Assembly: GCA_039809245.1 (NCBI GenBank)
Contig: JBDHUP010000001.1
Location: 100,137-164,136 of the forward strand
Reading direction: 5' to 3'
Source: Minisyncoccia bacterium
Lineage (GTDB): Bacteria > Patescibacteriota > Minisyncoccia > Phycocordibacterales > UBA9973
Length of the DNA: 64,000 nucleotides
The notes beneath the pieces were generated by a model, which saw nothing but the letters and a program-made list of their open reading frames with translations, had not been told where the DNA came from and did not search any database. This document shows positions 7,446-52,089 of this stretch, piece by piece. A program made the position numbers and the translations under genes. The stretch's first letter is position 1. Each line of letters begins with the position of its first letter.

Positions 7446-7943
7446 CTAATAGGTAACTTTAATCTCACGTTCAACAGTCTTAGGATTTAGTTTGTTGCAA
7501 CTATTATAACCTCGAGCAAATATATTAGTTTTTATTAAACCAGTTCCATCATCGGCTTTAACAACTTCGAAATCAAAACATGGTATGGATTGACCAGACA
7601 AACTAGAGAATGTAGTGTAATTATCTCCAGTTCCTGATATCGAAAATGACATATCATTACCATTTAAATCTTTTCCACAGCTCCAGCTTGGAGGAAGACT
7701 TGAAGACATATCTAAAACATTATCTGCATAGAGTGCACACTCTGTCGCTGTATCAGATTGGAAAAAAGATAATTGTGAATCATTAGCTAAAGATGACAGA
7801 ACCAACTGCTTATAAGTTGAGTTAGATAAACCTAAAGCTATCATAGATATGATACTAACAACTACTACTGCAAATAGTACAGCATATCCTTTATTATTAA
7901 ATTTTAGTGTTTTAATAATTTTCATAATTTTTATTGTTGCCAA
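7446..7943 (-). CDS. Pilin-like or pseudopilin-like secreted protein with a degenerate prepilin signal (KGYAVLFAVVVV, no Glu5)
   Basis: Lies in the minor-pilin run. It has a hydrophobic N-terminal helix and Cys pairs in the C-terminal region. Confidence 0.35.
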   Translation of the reverse strand: MATIKIMKIIKTLKFNNKGYAVLFAVVVVSIISMIALGLSNSTYKQLVLSSLANDSQLSFFQSDTATECALYADNVLDMSSSLPPSWSCGKDLNGNDMSFSISGTGDNYTTFSSLSGQSIPCFDFEVVKADDGTGLIKTNIFARGYNSCNKLNPKTVEREIKVTY

Positions 7944-8536
7944 TTCAATAGACTAACTCTAGATGATCTAGATTTCACAAGGTTACCATTACGCCATTCC
8001 ACTACAACCTTTATATCTAGCTCGTTTGAGTTATTAATAAGTGGGTTTATCGACATACTTACCATTCGTTTAAAACTACTAGGTTTACCAGCTTTGTATG
8101 TATAAAAATCTTTATTAGCAGCAGTTTCATCATAATTAAACAATTTACAATCTATAGTACCGAAATTATTTGTATGCGGTGTATTACAAACATTTATATT
8201 ATCAGAAGAAGTATTAGCCGGCTCTATTTCACATCCAGCAGCTGAGAAGCATGAACTAGAGGTAGAGTAACCGTACTTATTTAAGAAATTAAACCATCCT
8301 CCGTCTATATCTGCACTTTTTTGAAATGCATAAGTATCACGATCATTTCTTATATAATCTATAGCTTCTTGAATTAAATAGTTTGCGGTTATGTCATTTT
8401 TTGAATATCGAGCTGAAAACAAACTGCTAGATATAAGGCCGAGTAAACCATTCATAGCCACAGCAAGGATAAAAACTGCTATCATCGTCTCTATAAGAGT
8501 AAAACCTTTATTGTGTTTTTTATTAAAAATTTTCAT
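7931..8536 (-). CDS. Type IV minor pilin (prepilin N-terminal methylation motif)
   Basis: KGFTLIETMIAVFILAV class III signal. Confidence 0.75.
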   Translation of the reverse strand: MKIFNKKHNKGFTLIETMIAVFILAVAMNGLLGLISSSLFSARYSKNDITANYLIQEAIDYIRNDRDTYAFQKSADIDGGWFNFLNKYGYSTSSSCFSAAGCEIEPANTSSDNINVCNTPHTNNFGTIDCKLFNYDETAANKDFYTYKAGKPSSFKRMVSMSINPLINNSNELDIKVVVEWRNGNLVKSRSSRVSLLNWQQ

Positions 8537-8537
8537 A

Positions 8538-9143
8538 TTATTCAGTTGATCTTTGAGATGTCATTGTTTGAATAGCAAAAGCATTAGCCTCACCTTTAAT
8601 AGTTATCACCCCTTTCATAATTATATATACACTCGGCTGTATTTTATCTGTAGGACTAGATCCATTAACAAAGAAGTTAAGCGTCTGGACATCTACATTC
8701 TGTGCTACTAGATCAACACAAGCTGGACTACAACTTTGCAAACTAAACGTCCCATTAGTATCATAACCACCTGTTAAACGAGGAGTTATCTTATAAGCAG
8801 TGTCTCTAGGAGTTGGATGAAGTGGTGGTGTAAATAACAGAGCACCTCCCCCACTACCAGAGAGTGAACAATCTCTATTTGTAGTTGCTCCGAATGGAAT
8901 TATCCCTCCAGCATCTACACAATAATAATCTGTCCCCATTCTTATAGATCTAGTCATACTCTCCATAGCGAAATTTACGTTGTCCATAGCTATTCTTAAT
9001 GCTTGAGCTTTTTTAGCTGTATCAGAACTTGATATAAGAGCACCCATAGCTATTAACATTATAATCATGAAAATAGAAGTAGCCACCATTATCTCTACAA
9101 GAGTAAAACCTTTCATTCTAATTTTTTGATATTTTTGGTTCAT
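8538..9143 (-). CDS. Type IV minor pilin (PilV/PilW-like)
   Basis: KGFTLVEIMVATSIFMI class III signal. Confidence 0.75.
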   Translation of the reverse strand: MNQKYQKIRMKGFTLVEIMVATSIFMIIMLIAMGALISSSDTAKKAQALRIAMDNVNFAMESMTRSIRMGTDYYCVDAGGIIPFGATTNRDCSLSGSGGGALLFTPPLHPTPRDTAYKITPRLTGGYDTNGTFSLQSCSPACVDLVAQNVDVQTLNFFVNGSSPTDKIQPSVYIIMKGVITIKGEANAFAIQTMTSQRSTE

Positions 9144-9144
9144 A

Positions 9145-9807
9145 TTATTTTACACTAATCTGACCTACGCTTGATATTGAAATTGTTTTTGTTTCTCCAC
9201 TCTGATCATTTTTTATAATAACATCAACACTTGAAATTGGCCCAGAACATGACCCTCCTATAGAACCAGAACAAATATATGCATCAGGGTTCGGTCTAAG
9301 AAATGTTACATCTGCATAGCCAGATGTAGTACAATTTGCTCCATTTGGACAAATCTGATAAACACTATCGTTACTTGTAATGTTTAACATATCAATACAC
9401 TCATCATTAGCCTGGATCAAGATATTACTACCGCAAATTGTCGAAGTTGATACAGCATAATTATACTCCTTATTTGAATTCAAGTCATTAAATATAATAA
9501 AATTCTTTTTAGATCCTGCTCTGGCATCTAGTCCGTTATAATTAGCCGTTGAGAAATGTATTCCGTATCCATAGGAGAAATTAGATGCTTGGCTACTATG
9601 TACTCCAATAGCATAATTCTGAGCACGACGAATTGATAAAGCTATATCATCACCTAAATTTTGTAGTGACACATTTGAGCGGAAACGACTATAATCAAAA
9701 ATTGTAATCCCTGCAACAATTATAAAAATCGCAAGAACCACCATTAGTTCAACTAAAGTCATTCCATTTTGAGTATTTTTAAAATAACTTTTTTTGTAGA
9801 TTTTCAT
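9145..9807 (-). CDS. Type IV minor pilin (FimT/GspH-like)
   Basis: NGMTLVELMVVLAIFII class III signal. Confidence 0.7.
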   Translation of the reverse strand: MKIYKKSYFKNTQNGMTLVELMVVLAIFIIVAGITIFDYSRFRSNVSLQNLGDDIALSIRRAQNYAIGVHSSQASNFSYGYGIHFSTANYNGLDARAGSKKNFIIFNDLNSNKEYNYAVSTSTICGSNILIQANDECIDMLNITSNDSVYQICPNGANCTTSGYADVTFLRPNPDAYICSGSIGGSCSGPISSVDVIIKNDQSGETKTISISSVGQISVK

Positions 9808-9810
9808 TTT

Positions 9811-10623
9811 TTATATATGAAATAATGATACTAATGAAAAAATATCTAAATTACAAAGAAATACGATCAGAGCGCTTATAATTAAGAATGGAGCAAATGG
9901 TATTTCTGTTTTCATATTTATTTTCTTATGTGTAAATAAGATTACAGCTAGACTAACAACAGATCCTATCCAAAATGATATCATAATTACCGCAAGCCCC
10001 GAAAGAGTGCCGAGCATCCAACCTATACCGAGCATTAGCTTAGCATCACCTAGACCCATCCATCGTCCTTTTGAGACAAGCCACAGAAGTGCAAAAGGTA
10101 GTGCTAGAAGCGGGCCAGCAACAACATCAAGTAATGATGCTTTTACAAAGAGTGAACCAACACCGGTCTGATTTATAAATATAGATAAAAAGGAAATAGC
10201 AGCATATATATAAACTAATTTATCAGGTATAATTTTATGACGAATATCATAAACCGAAATAACAATAAGCAAAGAGAATATAAAAGAAAATATAGTTAAA
10301 AATAAAACATAGTGGCTTTGAGAAAACGATAAGACTGGTAAGAAATGTAATGCTATTAAAACAAAAACTAGCCCTGTACCAAACTCAACAATAGGATACT
10401 GGTGAGATATATTACTAGCGCATCTACGGCATTTGCCTGATTGAATTAGAAAAGAGAAGATTGGGATTAACTCATACCACCTAAGAGTGTGGTTACAAGT
10501 CATGCATATAGACCTTCCGGCGACTATTGATTTACCAGTATTAAACCTATAAATAACGACATTCAGAAAACTACCAATTAGTGTCCCTAGAAGAAAAATA
10601 AAGACGATAGCTAAAATATACAT
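9811..10623 (-). CDS. pilD: Prepilin peptidase (A24 family) with an N-terminal CxxC...CxxC zinc-binding domain
   Basis: Polytopic membrane protein. Contains CMTCNH...CRRCAS, and the catalytic Asp-containing regions are conserved. Confidence 0.85.
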   Translation of the reverse strand: MYILAIVFIFLLGTLIGSFLNVVIYRFNTGKSIVAGRSICMTCNHTLRWYELIPIFSFLIQSGKCRRCASNISHQYPIVEFGTGLVFVLIALHFLPVLSFSQSHYVLFLTIFSFIFSLLIVISVYDIRHKIIPDKLVYIYAAISFLSIFINQTGVGSLFVKASLLDVVAGPLLALPFALLWLVSKGRWMGLGDAKLMLGIGWMLGTLSGLAVIMISFWIGSVVSLAVILFTHKKINMKTEIPFAPFLIISALIVFLCNLDIFSLVSLFHI

Positions 10624-11272: not shown

Positions 11273-12481
11273 TTAGTGTATTCCTCCGGCAATGTTGTAG
11301 ATAGGCATCAAAACAGAAGTCAGAAGAAGTCCTACTCCAAGACCAAGACCAACTATCATTAATGGCTCAATAAGACTAACGAGAGTATCTATAGCTTCAT
11401 TCACTTCACGAGCATAGAAGTGCCCTAGAGTTTTAAGTATGCTACCCATTGAACCAGTTTCTTCTCCAACTTTTACCATACCAGTCATAATGGAAGGAAT
11501 TTCTGGATGTGGTGCCAATGAATCAGAAAAAGAACTTCCACTCTTCACTTTCTCTGTGACATCCTTTAATATTCCTTCGTATACACTATTACCCACTACA
11601 CTTGAAGTAAGTTCTATGGCTCGAATAATAGGAATACCAGATGAAAGCATCGTGTCCATATTATCCGAAATGCGTGATAAATATAATTTAATATATATAT
11701 TCTTAAAAATTGGAACTGAAATTTTTACTCTATCTAGATATTGTTTACCAGACTTTGACTGAGTTAGTCTAACAAGATATATAACAAACAAAATAAATCC
11801 AATTAAAATAAATATTCCATAATTAACTAATAAGTCACTAATACCCATAACAATCTTAGTAGATAAAGGTATTTCTTGACCAGATTCCTTGATTATAACG
11901 GCTAGTCTAGGAACAATAAAAACAAACATTAATGTCATAACCGCAATAAAAACTCCAACTACGAACCCTGGATAAACCAGGGCGTTTTTAGTTTTTGAAG
12001 TTAATTGGTATTGGCGATCAAGATATTCTGCTAAATATGAAAATGTTTGAGTAAGCTTTCCAGATTCTTCACCAGCCTTTACCATATTTACATAAAAATC
12101 TGAAAAGGCTTCTGGATGTTTAGCGAGTGCTTGAGATATAGTGACACCTGAAGAAATATCGGCAGATACACTATTTAGAACTTTAACCAACGCTGCATTC
12201 TCAGTATTTGAAGCAAGAAGATTAAAAGCTTTAAGGGCTGAAACTTGAGCTTCAAAGAGCGTAGATATCTGTCGTGACATAATAACCACATCTTTCTGTG
12301 CAACACCTTTTTCAAAAAAAGACATTTGCAATAATCCTTTCTTCTCAGTTTCTTCATTTATTGAAAGAACTATAAGACCTCTACGCTGTACCGCAATAAC
12401 AGCCAAATCTTTGGAAGCAGCGTCTACCGTTCCTTTCTTTTTCTCACCTGTATTTGTAATAGCGTCATAAGTAAATAACAT
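11273..12481 (-). CDS. pilC: Type IV pilus assembly platform protein (GspF family)
   Basis: 402 aa polytopic protein with two GspF-type repeats. Confidence 0.85.
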   Translation of the reverse strand: MLFTYDAITNTGEKKKGTVDAASKDLAVIAVQRRGLIVLSINEETEKKGLLQMSFFEKGVAQKDVVIMSRQISTLFEAQVSALKAFNLLASNTENAALVKVLNSVSADISSGVTISQALAKHPEAFSDFYVNMVKAGEESGKLTQTFSYLAEYLDRQYQLTSKTKNALVYPGFVVGVFIAVMTLMFVFIVPRLAVIIKESGQEIPLSTKIVMGISDLLVNYGIFILIGFILFVIYLVRLTQSKSGKQYLDRVKISVPIFKNIYIKLYLSRISDNMDTMLSSGIPIIRAIELTSSVVGNSVYEGILKDVTEKVKSGSSFSDSLAPHPEIPSIMTGMVKVGEETGSMGSILKTLGHFYAREVNEAIDTLVSLIEPLMIVGLGLGVGLLLTSVLMPIYNIAGGIH

Positions 12482-12487
12482 AAGAAA

Positions 12488-13546
12488 TTATAACATTCGC
12501 TCTAGAGCTTTAGGATTAATTGAATATTGGTATGCGCTCTCCATACTTATTTCCCCTCTTTGTACAAGTTCAACAAGAGATCTATTCATATCAACCATTC
12601 CAGATTCTGAAGAAGTTTCTATAACATTATTTATCTCATGTGTACGCTTTTCTCGAATAAGATTTGATACTGCGTTATTATTTATCAAAAGTTCATATGC
12701 TGGAACACGTCCTCCAGCTATACGAGGAACAAGTCTTTGAGAAAAAACGGCAATTAAACTAGATGCGAGTTGTAAACGAATTTGATCTTGCTGAGATGCT
12801 GGGAATGAATCGATAATACGGTCTATTGTTTGTGATGCATTATTTGTATGAAGGGTTGAGAGAACTAAGTGTCCAGTTTCTGCGGCTGTTACAGCTGCAG
12901 AAATAGTAGCTGCGTCACGCATTTCACCTATAAAAATAACATTAACATCTTCACGAAAGACTGATTTTAAAGCCCCATTAAAACTCTCTGTATCAATACC
13001 AACTTCTCTTTGATCAATTATAGATTTATCAGGTTTATACACAAACTCTATAGGATCTTCAATAGTGACAATATGTGCTGCTCTTTCACTATTAATCATA
13101 TTTATCATAGTAGATAAAGTTGTTGATTTACCTTGACCAACTGGACCGACTACAAGAAAGAAACCTTGATTCTTCTGAGCAAAACTGGCAAGAATTGGAG
13201 GAAGGTTTAATTCTTCAAATGACTTTGCTTTCGGGATAAGACGAAGAGCAATACCAATAAGACCTCTCTGATAGAAAGCGTTGCCACGTAAATGTGTATC
13301 TTCTTCAAAAGAGTAAGAGAAATCGGCTTCTTTTTCTTCGGTAAATTTTTTAGTTTTTTCTGAGCCTAGAATTACAGTTAGTATTCCAATCATATCTTCA
13401 TTTGTTAAGACTTCTTGATTAGCTAGAAACAGAAGTTGCCCAGCAATACGCATAGCTGGCTTTCTACCTGCTCCTAAGTGTAGATCTGATCCATCTTCAC
13501 GCATAAGGCTGGTAAGTAATTCATTTAAAAATTTTTTATAATCCAT
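12488..13546 (-). CDS. pilT: Twitching-motility/retraction ATPase PilT
   Basis: 352 aa. Walker A GPVGQGKSTT, Asp box and His box of the PilT family. Confidence 0.85.
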   Translation of the reverse strand: MDYKKFLNELLTSLMREDGSDLHLGAGRKPAMRIAGQLLFLANQEVLTNEDMIGILTVILGSEKTKKFTEEKEADFSYSFEEDTHLRGNAFYQRGLIGIALRLIPKAKSFEELNLPPILASFAQKNQGFFLVVGPVGQGKSTTLSTMINMINSERAAHIVTIEDPIEFVYKPDKSIIDQREVGIDTESFNGALKSVFREDVNVIFIGEMRDAATISAAVTAAETGHLVLSTLHTNNASQTIDRIIDSFPASQQDQIRLQLASSLIAVFSQRLVPRIAGGRVPAYELLINNNAVSNLIREKRTHEINNVIETSSESGMVDMNRSLVELVQRGEISMESAYQYSINPKALERML

Positions 13547-24150: not shown

Positions 24151-24154
24151 TTTG

Positions 24155-24240
24155 CGGAGGCGGTGAGATTCGAACTCACGGTCCTTTAAAGGGACGACGG
24201 TTTAGTAAACCGTTGATTTAAACCACTCATCCACGCCTCC
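24155..24240 (-). tRNA. Type II (long variable arm) tRNA-Ser-like gene with anticodon loop TTACTAA (anticodon ACU, A34)
   Basis: Reverse complement is GGAGGCGTGGATGAGTGGTTTAAATCAACGGTTTACTAAACCGTCGTCCCTTTAAAGGACCGTGAGTTCGAATCTCACCGCCTCCG. 3-bp D-stem, discriminator G, long variable hairpin. Confidence 0.7.
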
Positions 24241-25630: not shown

Positions 25631-25717
25631 GGAGACGTGTCAGAGTGGTCTAACGTACCTCCTTGCTAAGGAGGCAGGCTTTAATCGGCCTCGAGAGTTC
25701 GAATCTCTCCGTCTCCG
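25631..25717 (+). tRNA. tRNA-Ser (GCU), type II
   Basis: GGAGACGTGTCAGAGTGGTCTAACGTACCTCCTTGCTAAGGAGGCAGGCTTTAATCGGCCTCGAGAGTTCGAATCTCTCCGTCTCCG. Confidence 0.8.
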
Positions 25718-25727
25718 CACATAAAAA

Positions 25728-36459: not shown

Positions 36460-36509
36460 GGACTACATAGAAAAAGGAGTACGCAGATACTCCTTTTTCT
36501 ATGTAGTCC
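36460..36509. repeat. 50-bp perfect palindrome (22-bp arms, 6-nt loop) abutting the 3' end of tRNA-Ile. A terminator or a MITE-like insertion.
   Basis: ggactacatagaaaaaggagta cgcaga tactcctttttctatgtagtcc. Flanked by tccgccct / tccaccct. Confidence 0.6.
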
Positions 36510-36580
36510 ACCCTCTTGGATTCGAACCAAGGACCCCAGAGGTATAAGCTCTGTGCTCTAACCAACTGAGCTAAGGGTGG
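36507..36580 (-). tRNA. tRNA-Ile (anticodon UAU, reads AUA)
   Basis: Reverse complement is CCACCCTTAGCTCAGTTGGTTAGAGCACAGAGCTTATACCTCTGGGGTCCTTGGTTCGAATCCAAGAGGGTGGA. Anticodon loop is CTTATAC. Confidence 0.75.
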
Positions 36581-46738: not shown

Positions 46739-49480
46739 TTATCCTTGCTGTCTATACTTATCCATAATCTCGGCTTCGACTTCTTCGCGCTCACGGCCAA
46801 ACTTCAAATATGAAAGCTCTTTAATCTTCTCGACTATCTCTGGTGTCCCTTGTGGTGGTGGAAATGTGGCAATATTGAATGGCTTTGTCGGCTGGCCATT
46901 TATGAGCATCGATATATATGCATTACGATTCTCAATTTTCATAATATCAGCTGCAGAGAATACAGGCTTGAATTTGTTTTCGAGGAATTGCGCATCTTCG
47001 CCACCGACTCGGAACACAGCCATAGAACCAACGTTGCCGAAAACAGCATCTCGAATATTCTCTTCAAGTTGAGCTATATACTGGTGAGCAACAGTTAGAG
47101 ATAAGCGGTACTTACGAGCTTCAGATAGAATAGATTCTATGGAGTCAGTAGTCACGTTTTGGAACTCGTCTATATACAAGAAGAAGTCTTCCATTTTTTT
47201 ACCATACATATCTACACGAGAAAGCGCGGCCATTTGTATCTTGTTTACAATTAAAAGACCTATTAGATTCGCATTTATATCGCCAAGGCGTCCTTTCGAA
47301 AGGTTCACAAGCAAAATCTTTTTATTATCCATGATATCTCGGAAGTTGAACACTGATTTCTCTTGAAGGACCACAGGGCGCATGATGTCATTCGAAATAA
47401 AATTATCGAATTTTGAAGTGATATATGGCACGAAGTTGGCAATAGATTGATCACCTGTTGTTTGCTCTGCACTCCTCCAGAACTGAGTTATTATTGGGTT
47501 CTTACAGTGTGAAAGCTTCATATCACGGAATTCTTTATCCGCAAGAACGCGACCAATCTCAAGTAAAGTTGCTCCAGATTCAGGATGCTCCATCACAAGG
47601 AAAGCTGAGTTTTTGAAATACTGTTCGAACATTGGACCTCCAGATGTCTTCATATCAAAAAGCTTGTTAAAGATATTCATTAATTCGTTAACTACAAAAG
47701 TCTTCTGCTCTGGATACTTTGGATCATACTCAAGCATATTGAGCCCCATAGGTCGCGCTGTGTAAGCCGGATCGAAATAAATAACGTCGTCAATTCGCTC
47801 TTTTGGAATGTAGCTAAGAATATCTTGGATATCTGTACCATGCGGATCAATATAACAAACTCCGTGACCGGCTTTGATATCCTGAGCGATCATATTCTTC
47901 ATAATTGTAGTCTTTCCTGTACCTGTTTGACCTATAACATACAAATGGCGCATTCGATCTTCATCAGCAAAGTGTACTTCGGTATCTTTCCCTCTATAAC
48001 TATTTATACCGAGCTTAATACCTTCTGATCCCATCTCTATTGGAGCAGGGGCTATGCCAGCACGAGCTTGTTTGAGCTGAGGAGAGACGATGCCATATGG
48101 GAAGTGAAAGATTGTAGCAAGCTCTTTGAGATTTAGTGGCATAGAATACTTCTGTGAAAACATACGATATGAGAAATCGTGAACCAGTGCATTCAAGTCA
48201 GAACCTTGTGGGTGATTAAAATTAAAACTATTACGGTGTGATTCAGTGAATTGATTAAAAGAAGATTCAATATCAGCTAGAATCTGATCCGCGCGAGTTT
48301 TGCTTTCCGCCGAAGCAACGATACGAATATTGGCAGCCATTATAGTACTCTTCATTTTCTCTGTAATGCTTTCTATCGCTTTGTCGTTGATCTTTTTCTC
48401 TTCTTTTTCTTTTGATTCACCGAAAATCATGCCTTTTGCTAACTTACCGAACTCTTTACCGAATTGACGAACAACACTAGAAGCTGTTTTAACTGACATT
48501 CCCTCTTTGACATCACCTAATATAGTGTGGAATTTTTTTATTATTTCATCATCCTCTGGACATATTGTGAATTGTATTGAGGCTCCTTCACCAGACTTCT
48601 TAAGTTTAGTGAAAACATTAAGAATTATATTTAGTGGATCGTGGTCTATGGCGTCATATAATTTGATAGGATAGACCTCGTAAGAATCAAGGGTGGCATA
48701 AGAAGCTGAGATGGCTCCCCCTTCGGAGAAAATATTATAATCATCAGGCACTTCGACAATCTTGGCATGAGAATGGACTCCGAGTAACTGTTTCTCAAAT
48801 AGATCAGCTTTATGAGTAGGGACAGCTGTGTAGAATATAAAATGGTCAGTATCTTCTGCTAGAGCAATCTCGAGAGTAAAGTGATTACGGTTATAATTCT
48901 CACGACCTTCACCGACTGAATGCATACCGGCATAGAACTGCTCCATAGCTGAAAGTAACTCCTTTAAACTTTTCTTATTCTTCTCATCATCTTCTGGGTC
49001 AGGTAGAGTGATCTCGAAAAGCTTCATATCTAGAGATTTAAACAGTGGTGTTCCCTCCTTGAGTCCTGGAATCTTATGTGTACTATATAAATACTGGACT
49101 AAGAAACGATGGAAATCATCATCTAGATGGGGATTATTCATCTTACTTATTACAGAAAGAGCGCTAGATATACCTTTACTTAGAAGGACTCCTAGCATTT
49201 CCTCCATTTTATTATCATGTGACTCTGGGTGAAGACGAAGAACAAGCTTTTCTTCTTCTCCTTCTTTCATTACCACATTCTTATGCATTACTTCGTGTGG
49301 TTCAAGCTTTTTGTACTCTTGGATTACATCGTGAGCGAGTGCTTCCTTCGAATATTCTTGACCTTGTTCGCTTAGAGATCTTTCTTTCTCGGCGAGATGC
49401 GCACGTAAAAATTCAAGCTCCTCTTGTGGAGTTTTGAACTTTGGAGCATTGTTTAAATTAAAACCTTCCATTGTATTCAT
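46739..49480 (-). CDS. Large P-loop NTPase of the VirD4/TraG/HerA-FtsK-like superfamily, preceded by a roughly 470-aa N-terminal region of unknown function
   Basis: Walker A VIGQTGTGKTT. Walker B FFLYIDEF. Arginine-finger-like YRLSLTVAHQ. 913 aa. Confidence 0.45.
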   Translation of the reverse strand: MNTMEGFNLNNAPKFKTPQEELEFLRAHLAEKERSLSEQGQEYSKEALAHDVIQEYKKLEPHEVMHKNVVMKEGEEEKLVLRLHPESHDNKMEEMLGVLLSKGISSALSVISKMNNPHLDDDFHRFLVQYLYSTHKIPGLKEGTPLFKSLDMKLFEITLPDPEDDEKNKKSLKELLSAMEQFYAGMHSVGEGRENYNRNHFTLEIALAEDTDHFIFYTAVPTHKADLFEKQLLGVHSHAKIVEVPDDYNIFSEGGAISASYATLDSYEVYPIKLYDAIDHDPLNIILNVFTKLKKSGEGASIQFTICPEDDEIIKKFHTILGDVKEGMSVKTASSVVRQFGKEFGKLAKGMIFGESKEKEEKKINDKAIESITEKMKSTIMAANIRIVASAESKTRADQILADIESSFNQFTESHRNSFNFNHPQGSDLNALVHDFSYRMFSQKYSMPLNLKELATIFHFPYGIVSPQLKQARAGIAPAPIEMGSEGIKLGINSYRGKDTEVHFADEDRMRHLYVIGQTGTGKTTIMKNMIAQDIKAGHGVCYIDPHGTDIQDILSYIPKERIDDVIYFDPAYTARPMGLNMLEYDPKYPEQKTFVVNELMNIFNKLFDMKTSGGPMFEQYFKNSAFLVMEHPESGATLLEIGRVLADKEFRDMKLSHCKNPIITQFWRSAEQTTGDQSIANFVPYITSKFDNFISNDIMRPVVLQEKSVFNFRDIMDNKKILLVNLSKGRLGDINANLIGLLIVNKIQMAALSRVDMYGKKMEDFFLYIDEFQNVTTDSIESILSEARKYRLSLTVAHQYIAQLEENIRDAVFGNVGSMAVFRVGGEDAQFLENKFKPVFSAADIMKIENRNAYISMLINGQPTKPFNIATFPPPQGTPEIVEKIKELSYLKFGREREEVEAEIMDKYRQQG

Positions 49481-50370: not shown

Positions 50371-50399
50371 ATAAGGCTTATACTACCAGAACCACCGTT

Positions 50400-51014
50400 T
50401 TATACAACTTCCTGCTGATAGCAGGATTCACAATACAAAATAGGAGCAGTTTCTTTGCTTAAATTAGTAGTTACTTCTTTATTACAATTTGAACACTCTC
50501 TTGTAAAGAATTTGAATTCACCACGACGAGTGAGGCGATCCTTATGGCGACAGAAGAAACATTTACGTGGTAATGGTAAGTACATCTTCTTGTAGAAAAG
50601 TAATTCTTGCTCAGTAATTTTATAATTACGTTCGCAGTCCTTACAAACTAAAATTTCATTTGTAATACTATCTAATACCTCATCTATATGGTCAGGGATT
50701 TGTTCAGGTTTAAGTGTTTCTTTACCTTTTGTCATCTGAATATCATCTTCCCATCGAAAACCTAAAGACAAAGCTTCTTCTTTAGTTAAAGGAAAATTAT
50801 CTTGACCAATTGTTTCATTGTAAGCAAAAGGTGCAATATGTGCTGGCATCATCAGACCATGTACTCCTTTGTCTGTAAGCTCTCTTACAATATGATCTTT
50901 CAGTTTTAAATATTCTTCTTTCGAATACTCTTTATTAAAAATTGAATACTTACCATTTTTAAGAGCATCACAACCAATACATTCTTGGCAGTTCCTAATA
51001 TCAAAAGAATACAT
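50400..51014 (-). CDS. Cys-rich zinc-ribbon protein with a C-terminal CxxC...FYKKM.LP.P..C..CR module
   Basis: Reads CKDCERNYKITEQELLFYKKMYLPLPRKCFFCRHKDRL...CSNCNKEV...CESC. Confidence 0.5.
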   Translation of the reverse strand: MYSFDIRNCQECIGCDALKNGKYSIFNKEYSKEEYLKLKDHIVRELTDKGVHGLMMPAHIAPFAYNETIGQDNFPLTKEEALSLGFRWEDDIQMTKGKETLKPEQIPDHIDEVLDSITNEILVCKDCERNYKITEQELLFYKKMYLPLPRKCFFCRHKDRLTRRGEFKFFTRECSNCNKEVTTNLSKETAPILYCESCYQQEVV

Positions 51015-51133
51015 AATATCACTTGAATTTTCAGCCCAATATGAGCCAATAATATTACTAGAATAACCTGTAGCTACAACTTCAAGTAGTCGCTCAGATT
51101 TTGTACCATAGCCTATAGTTCCAAGAGAATCTT

Positions 51134-52066
51134 TTATTTTGTTTTAGATGAAAATAAATAACGACAATCTTCAGCCTTTGCGGCCTCAAAAGAATTAAAA
51201 ACATTTTTGCATTCATTTAAATAATCCCCAATTGAATTTGTTGTTTTTAAATTATTATTTTCCCTTCTTGGCAAAGTTTTACAAAATTCTTTAAACTTTT
51301 CTTTAGCTTCTTCAAATTTTTGATAGCTTCCTTTTATCTCCTTAAGCTTATTTAAATATTCTTCAGAACTTAATTGTTCATTAAACCAACAATGACTCTT
51401 ATTTCTTAAGTTAACACAACCAAAACAATTAGTTAGTCCACTACCATTTAATATGAAATATGAATCCACGCAACCATTAACATTTTGACCCCATATAGTG
51501 CTTGCTGATTCTTGAACGTTAACACACTCATAACAACGTTCAAAACTGACTCCAAAATAAATATCTGATGAATCAAGACCATTTTTAACACCTCGAGAAT
51601 AGAGTAATTCGTCAGCGGGACTTGTATTAAAAACAAGATAGCAATTTTTACAACCACCAGCCATATTTACATATTCACTATTTATATTTTGACCATCTCC
51701 AGTAGAAATACCCAAGTTTATTTTTGGTACTTTTATTAAAAATTCTTTCATTTGATCGAAGAATGGGCGTGATATATCATAATCTATAGAATAATCTTTT
51801 GGGTCCCATTTCTCAGAATAAAAACAATCATAACAATAAATTGTATATGGTGATTTAGGGTTATACATAGACATTACACTTTTTTCGCATAATCCGCATT
51901 TTCTTCCTGAATATAATGTCAGCTCATTACGCCAAACAGCTCTCATCTTAAAACGACATTCGGGGCAAACATGTGGAACAGGAACTTTCATCTTCTTATA
52001 GAAAGAAAAGTCGTCGGATTCGATATTGAAGGAGTTTTTGCAGTTTTGGCAGACACGAGTTTCCAT
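51134..52066 (-). CDS. Cys-rich zinc-ribbon protein with an N-terminal CxxC...FYKKM.VP.P..C..CR module
   Basis: Reads CQNCKNSFNIESDDFSFYKKMKVPVPHVCPECRFKMRAVWRNELTLYSGRKCGLCEKSV, plus further CxxC pairs. Confidence 0.5.
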   Translation of the reverse strand: METRVCQNCKNSFNIESDDFSFYKKMKVPVPHVCPECRFKMRAVWRNELTLYSGRKCGLCEKSVMSMYNPKSPYTIYCYDCFYSEKWDPKDYSIDYDISRPFFDQMKEFLIKVPKINLGISTGDGQNINSEYVNMAGGCKNCYLVFNTSPADELLYSRGVKNGLDSSDIYFGVSFERCYECVNVQESASTIWGQNVNGCVDSYFILNGSGLTNCFGCVNLRNKSHCWFNEQLSSEEYLNKLKEIKGSYQKFEEAKEKFKEFCKTLPRRENNNLKTTNSIGDYLNECKNVFNSFEAAKAEDCRYLFSSKTK

Positions 52067-52089
52067 ATATTGTATTGTACACGAGGAGC

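Follow-up and report, generated by a model that had tools for sequence, protein, structure and literature searches.

Two halves of one frameshifted gene in a Minisyncoccia genome: a cysteine-rich protein family of Patescibacteria and its linkage to soluble VirD4/TraD-like ATPases

Two consecutive minus-strand open reading frames (ORFs) of 310 and 204 aa in the genome of a Minisyncoccia bacterium (assembly GCA_039809245.1, contig JBDHUP010000001.1) raise the question whether they encode a pair of related zinc-ribbon proteins or belong to one gene. They lie in a stretch of 64,000 nucleotides (positions 100,137 to 164,136 of the contig), hereafter called the window, and had been described in a first-pass annotation as cysteine-rich proteins, located between map and pyrH, which carry a common FYKKM module at opposite ends. 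A duplicated family with differently permuted copies in tandem was proposed, as was the possibility that a single gene had been split within the space between the ORFs (51015..51133). The ORFs, their coordinates and the quoted motifs were found as described, and a Peptidase_M24 (map) gene and an AA_kinase (pyrH-like) gene do flank them, 29 nt downstream and 23 nt upstream, respectively. The two ORFs together represent a single gene of approximately 555 residues, hereafter called the F gene, of which the reading frame has been broken into a front and a back half (Table 1).

Three-frame translation showed that the frame of the 204-aa ORF has no stop codon for 41 codons 5' of its ATG, up to the stop codon of the 310-aa ORF. 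A conceptual fusion product of 555 aa was made by joining the two frames at this boundary, and as a query it gave 4,466 protein matches. The best 120 of these align colinearly with it over 100% of the query at 64-80% identity and are almost all 553-558 aa in length; their sources are Paceibacteria, Nomurabacteria and further Patescibacteria, and their records bear the name 'hypothetical protein'. The supposition that the pair was once one gene was thus borne out, since the single fused ORF is present in relatives. The fused product retains 159 of the 161 columns that are at least 95% conserved among 73 orthologs, and 85 of 86 such columns in 147 homologs. By its colinear alignment over the full length, and by the residues that are invariant in the family (16 finger Cys and Y-N-E), it is a member of the family of approximately 555-aa proteins, hereafter called the F family, although the single uninterrupted ORF of about 545-600 aa is missing from the window copy because of the frameshift and the TAA codon that follows it.

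The junction reads FSSK-x-IKDSLGT in every homolog aligned (protein alignment A1). At the DNA level it was compared with three orthologs, L002, L004 and L005. The window sequence is TCT AAA (ACAAA) ATA AAA GAT, and L002, L005 and L004 carry ATG, AGT and GAA, respectively, instead of the five nucleotides in brackets; the lesion is an indel of +2 nt or -1 nt. It is situated at the very end of the 310-aa ORF and not within the space between the ORFs, where it had been expected. The apparent second ORF would begin at the first Met, 41 codons downstream of the break. These 41 untranslated codons have a mean identity of 77% (maximum 93%) to the orthologs, which equals the conservation between intact orthologs.

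As to the nature of the lesion, we consider it rather probable that the window copy has suffered a genuine and very recent inactivating mutation, i.e. that it is a young pseudogene in a multigene family evolving by birth and death. Residue conservation is nearly complete in both halves and in the gap, and the lesion must therefore be very recent, or else absent from the real population. None of the additional substitutions or stop codons of a decayed pseudogene were found, only a single lesion with conservation as in intact orthologs; if the copy is a pseudogene, it is a very young one. The frameshift is not an assembler quirk, because a Logan contig assembled separately from run SRR19427084 matches it at 100% identity over 7,421 nt, frameshift included. 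The exact 204-aa product is also present in public collections, from an NCBI contig and a Logan contig. Of 220 internal copies of the family in species-representative genomes, 212 have their full length; in-frame TAA nonsense codons interrupt two others, and a further one is partial, with its N-terminus missing, so that occasional inactivation is normal in the F family.

Several points weigh against a true mutation. The evidence consists of assembled sequence, so that a consensus error or a minority allele is possible, and the total absence of decay would be expected equally from a sequencing error. The organism would in that case possess an intact and functional gene for 554-555 aa, which we regard as the main alternative, though a rather unlikely one. 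Such an error would account for the lack of decay in either half and in the 41 'gap' codons; the indel lies within an A-rich stretch, in a gene with 47 A/T runs of four or more, and both assemblies in which the frameshift is seen may stem from the one run, SRR19427084. Yet two different assemblers agree at 100% over 7.4 kb, the A run is just 4 nt long, an atypical context for errors in short reads, and a collection of 5.8 billion proteins contains no intact near-identical protein, its best match being 80% identical.

The sequence at the break, A_AAA_TAA, would also permit a cognate -1 slip of tRNA-Lys in the P site. With programmed -1 ribosomal frameshifting the tRNA would move from AAA to the overlapping AAA while the stop codon occupied the A site, and a full-length product of 555 aa would be made, with the predicted junction peptide …YLFSSKTKIKDSLGTIGY…. 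The P-site codon after the slip is fully cognate, the product (…SSKTK-IKDSLG…) is colinear with the orthologs save for one extra residue, and both parts are fully conserved. Programmed frameshifting was nevertheless rejected, and is most improbable, because a canonical X_XXY_YYZ heptamer is absent (there is only the P-site-slippery A_AAA before the stop), the RNA downstream folds no better than shuffled sequences (z=0.31), and the shift is found in no relative surveyed: the three orthologs compared at the DNA level are in frame, 212 of the 220 copies are uninterrupted, and the two remaining split copies owe their interruption to nonsense codons located elsewhere in the gene.

The intact F protein consists of a double Cys4 finger unit, two repeat units (S1 and S2), a conserved C-terminal region and a second double finger unit. 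The N-terminal unit has C6, C9, C34 and C37 with FYKKM-VPVP in finger 1, and C57, C60, C78 and C81 in finger 2. The eight Cys of the C-terminal unit are invariant in alignments A1 and A4, and C546 is nearly invariant in A2. The terminal segments of approximately 85 residues are 33% identical (BLASTP, E=1e-16), and comparison of the profiles of the two units, built from 147 homologs, gave a probability of 99.4% (E=2.5e-21). The module that had been noticed in both ORFs is accordingly homologous, at a significance that leaves the proposed similarity standing, but the unit is longer than the FYKKM module and comprises two consecutive Cys4 fingers. The idea of permuted tandem copies, or of a duplicated gene pair, was not upheld: the modules form the two termini of one internally duplicated protein. 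S1 and S2, both of them Cys-containing beta-solenoid-like units, represent a second internal duplication (hhalign, probability 99.7%, E=3.7e-27).

The position of the break in this architecture bears on whether the 310-aa and 204-aa products could both be made and act as two subunits. In favour of this, neither part has lost its double-finger unit, and public data list the 204-aa ORF as a protein. The frameshift falls within S2, however, which argues against a functional split into subunits, and 41 conserved residues would be lost; a comparable split is conserved in no relative surveyed, and no obvious Shine-Dalgarno-like sequence precedes the internal ATG when judged by eye, without a formal test. 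Two functional subunits are therefore regarded as highly unlikely. C-terminal fragments starting near residue 350 occur also in L077 and L027, but a conserved split position was rejected because these are nonsense or truncation events, in which the common start is the first Met after the break.

Table 1 Coordinates of the disrupted F gene, of its parts and of related features. Positions are those of the window unless a locus is named; A-F-A, ATPase-F-ATPase; T4CP, type IV coupling protein
Feature	Position	Strand	Remarks
Whole disrupted F-family gene	50400..52066	-	Conceptual product of 555 aa
5' part (310-aa ORF)	51134..52066	-	Ends ...FSSKTK followed by TAA; ortholog match extends to FSSK
3' part (204-aa ORF)	50400..51014	-	Fused aa 352-555 and stop
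'Gap' of the first-pass annotation	51015..51137	-	41 codons, fused aa 311-351, IKDSLGTIGYGTKSERLLEVVATGYSSNIIGSYWAENSSDI, open in the frame of the 204-aa ORF
Frameshift site	51138..51142	-	ACAAA (5 nt) against one codon in L002, L004 and L005; A-rich context
Premature TAA	51134..51136	-	Stop created by the frameshift, two codons past the indel
N-terminal double Cys4 finger unit	51809..52066	-	aa 1-86; eight Cys, all invariant in A1
Repeat unit S1	51329..51763	-	aa 102-246; helix, Cys-containing beta-solenoid-like rungs and NCFGCVNLRNKS..FNEQLS.EEY
Repeat unit S2	50883..51307	-	aa 254-395; frameshift at aa 310
Conserved C-terminal region	50658..50882	-	aa 396-470; invariant G, Y-N-E (PFAYNE) and T in A2 and A4
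C-terminal double Cys4 finger unit	50403..50657	-	aa 471-555; C475, C478, C503, C506 and C525, C528, C546, C549
913-aa T4CP-like P-loop ATPase	46739..49480	-	One gene (map) away, downstream of the F gene
A-F-A cassette, example	L042 7801-13231		About 20 similar loci; ATPases of L042 at 7801-9981 and 11687-13231
Other disrupted F copies	L036 11605-13392; L077 9938-11659; L027 16950-17642		Two in-frame TAA splits, one N-truncated beside a full copy

An AlphaFold2 model of P0001, an ortholog 80% identical to the window fusion, was calculated from a 147-sequence alignment and had a predicted local distance difference test score (pLDDT) of 84.9 and a predicted template-modelling score of 0.87. Confidence was high at the termini and in the C-terminal region (pLDDT >90 for aa 396-470), and 57-78 for the S units. 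The C-terminal region has no match in Pfam or the PDB. With 30 Cys (5.4%) the fused product is rich in cysteine, compared with a median of 0.6% in neighbouring proteins, and the four Cys4 fingers probably bind zinc. The finger units are probably treble clefs (zf_Tbcl and zf_Tbcl_2). The protein is predicted to be cytoplasmic because it has no hydrophobic segment. A second type of paralog, of 553 aa (L002 5246-6907), has a second N-terminal finger without its four Cys (…RPSDKSGKMIVSMYNSD…WWADDW); its solenoid units are much richer in Cys, and some members have precomputed hits to PF02420 (insect antifreeze repeat).

Of the whole protein, Pfam identifies the fingers alone. The first-pass annotation had allowed that the module might belong to a known annotated domain, and it does correspond to PF13451 (zf_Tbcl), PF23477 (zf_Tbcl_2) and the related TIGR04272. 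The scores of the window protein, however, lie under the threshold: PF13451 gives 18.3 bits with the 204-aa ORF and 16.3 bits with the fusion, the gathering cut-off being 24 bits, whereas orthologs P0093 and P0100 exceed it with 26.8 and 28.7 bits. A relation of the window protein to PF13451 is probable. It has no match to PF23477 (cut-off 27 bits) or TIGR04272 (cut-off 36 bits); ortholog P0120 reaches 24 bits with PF23477, under the gathering cut-off. When 80 family members were scanned (E<=1e-3), PF13451 was found in 27 and PF23477 in 18, and the central part of approximately 380 residues had no credible Pfam match in any of the 80, just two single-member matches at chance level. The terminal units resemble these domains in being Cys4 finger pairs with CxxC...FY..M..P.P..CxxCR and CxxC...YCxxCY. 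The domains, however, span about 170 of the 555 residues and have no assigned function, and finger 1 has a spacing of 24 residues, not 17 as in TIGR04272 (CxxC-x17-CxxC). Zinc binding has been demonstrated experimentally for distantly related small CxxC-x17-CxxC proteins, from Methanosarcina mazei (PMC12704099). Cysteine-rich beta-solenoids (the antifreeze proteins of spruce budworm and Tenebrio, PF02420, and curli CsgA) are also among the closest known systems.

Beyond these domains, nothing significant was found for the F protein in NCBIfam (LysW at E=0.8) or among the PADLOC models of anti-phage defence, and a sequence-profile search of the PDB gave chance coiled-coil matches only. PHROGs models matched neither the type-1 ortholog P0001 nor, beyond a marginal hit of unassigned function (E=0.0014), paralog P0122. 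Literature searched by Pfam names and accessions and for cysteine-rich or zinc-ribbon families of the candidate phyla radiation contained nothing about the F family, which has no whole-protein Pfam or NCBIfam model and is catalogued only as hypothetical protein.

The family is large. A profile search of 1.84 billion representatives at 50% identity gave 2,177, 3,666 and 5,372 clusters at E<=1e-30, 1e-10 and 1e-3, respectively, and proteins of the best 150 clusters are mostly 540-600 aa long (range 497-602). Sampled members come nearly all from genomes labelled Patescibacteria, and the distribution indicates a large, uncharacterised family specific to this group. Typical members were also seen on contigs labelled Burkholderiales and Gammaproteobacteria (L019, JAMPXW010000002.1, and L074, CAYJLM010000036.1), which are probably mis-binned or mislabelled contigs of Patescibacteria. 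One recovered F locus lies on an 888-kb chromosome.

No F paralog besides the copy at 50400..52066 was found within the 64-kb window, but in other genomes the gene is rarely single: there are two tandem paralogs in L002 (with 36% identity between them), three in L005 and five in L004. Among 77 species-representative loci (GTDB), a set drawn from genomes other than that of the window, F genes occur in co-directional arrays with as many as 12 copies in 21.6 kb. The largest arrays have 12 copies (L059, 1-21659), 10 (L057) and 8 each (L058 and L054); that of L059 fills the whole 21.6-kb locus of Patescibacteria genome AH-259-L05, the complete relatives of which are smaller than 1 Mb. Array paralogs are 31-37% identical to the conceptual fusion of the window.

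Clustering of all ORFs in the 77 loci gave one outstanding neighbour of the F genes, a group of soluble P-loop ATPases similar to VirD4, TraD and TrwB. Sixty-one of them occur in 37 of the 77 loci, which have such an ATPase within 10 kb; in 29 loci the ATPase is directly adjacent to an F gene, and ATPases occupy 38 of 220 non-F neighbour slots. The recurrent cassette has the order dnaK, ATPase (~700 aa), F (1-4 copies), second ATPase (~500 aa), dnaJ, so that the A-F-A block sits inside the usual dnaK-dnaJ pair. The long ATPase type has a C-terminal zf_Tbcl_2/TIGR04272 finger (50-59 bits). ATPase-F-ATPase order was observed in distant lineages as well, including Peribacteria and Harrisonbacteria. 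When metagenome contigs were scanned in the reciprocal direction, from the short ATPase, an F gene was present within about 1 kb for nearly all homologs of at least 63% identity that had enough flanking sequence.

The linkage has its limits, and these count against reading it as a functional partnership. In the same scan F was near none of the T4CP-like ATPases of 44-50% identity, and the linkage is therefore specific to a sub-group of the ATPases. It is partly inherited synteny, as the order dnaK-A-F-A-dnaJ recurs in related Nomurabacteria. At 74-80% identity, the nearest orthologs of the window gene lie between Mur-ligase genes, without an adjoining ATPase, and because of this the association of F genes and ATPases is strong but not universal. 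The observed ties between F proteins and ATPases are the neighbourhood association and the common finger domain.

The F-flanking ATPases are themselves only partly like type IV coupling proteins, a likeness that concerns the neighbours and not the F protein. They pass the thresholds of T4SS-DNA_transf, TrwB_AAD_bind and TraG-D_C, but have no N-terminal membrane anchor (maximum 19-aa hydropathy <=1.54), score far under the equivalog cut-offs in NCBIfam, and in about half of the cases carry a C-terminal zf_Tbcl_2 finger. The window contains a 913-aa ATPase of this kind, which is ~44% identical to the long F-flanking ATPases and scores above the gathering cut-offs of the Pfam models T4SS-DNA_transf, TrwB_AAD_bind, TraG-D_C and DUF87. 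It differs from a canonical T4CP in that it has no transmembrane segment and that no genes of a type IV secretion system were seen among its immediate neighbours; from its domain matches it would be described as T4CP-like only. This protein also has an N-terminal extension of ~480 aa, with a precomputed assignment to PF26449 (DUF8128), and matches phrog_5156, a phage family of unassigned function, over nearly the full length (E=4e-81). A homolog of its N-terminal part was noted downstream of the F array in L065. A survey of 2,918 Patescibacteria genomes from 2025 counted 5,713 VirD4-like genes, of which only 148 were close to virB4; it reports roughly two such genes in each genome, most of them remote from virB4, and raises the possibility that they were 'exapted for other functions' (PMC12102498).

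The F gene of the window belongs to the tail of an rplR-rpsE-rplO-secY-adk cluster. Its interval (50371-52089) is bordered by adk/AA_kinase on one side and map on the other, while the closest orthologs have a Mur-ligase-family gene on either side (L002, L007, L012, L018, L040, L062 and L067 were compared). Relative to these orthologs, therefore, either the window gene has been relocated or its surroundings have undergone rearrangement.

Elsewhere in the window, uncommon tRNA genes were observed. A minus-strand tRNA-Ser (24154-24240) has the anticodon ACU, with A at position 34 (loop UUACUAA, read from the sequence), an unusual feature in bacteria; at a distance of 1.4 kb there is a normal tRNA-Ser(GCU), at 25631-25718. 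A minus-strand tRNA-Ile (36506-36580) has the anticodon UAU and reads AUA directly. Such a tRNA is uncommon in bacteria, where a lysidine-modified CAU is usual; two tRNA(CAU) genes are found in the window, at 2662-2733 and 2790-2866.

Taken as a whole, the explanation we put forward with fair confidence is that of one broken F-family gene, the intact product of which probably carries zinc fingers and would work in partnership with ATPases. The intact protein would be zinc-stabilised and cytoplasmic, and its terminal Cys4 fingers might bind nucleic acid or protein, which is plausible for fingers of this type. It would act with the flanking soluble VirD4/TraD-like hexameric ATPases as an adaptor, client or cargo, and divergent paralogs would supply a repertoire of specificities. 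A role as partner or cargo of these ATPases is the leading interpretation of the gene neighbourhoods and is probable.

For the window the result is a corrective one: a single frameshifted gene had the appearance of two novel zinc-ribbon proteins in permuted form, and the proper annotation of 50400..52066 is that of a disrupted gene from a catalogued family of hypothetical proteins. The local feature is in itself ordinary, whereas the F family is without structural or functional precedent. We suggest, tentatively, that the family and the anchor-less VirD4/TraD-like ATPases form a previously undescribed system specific to Patescibacteria, in which orphan homologues of coupling proteins would have been exapted for zinc-finger/solenoid clients, adaptors or exported cargo. 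If so, the zf_Tbcl_2 finger common to both would be a docking or nucleic-acid-binding element, and the window would show a recently broken member near such an ATPase. The link would also provide a candidate partner for the VirD4-like ATPases of these epibiotic bacteria (PMC12102498).

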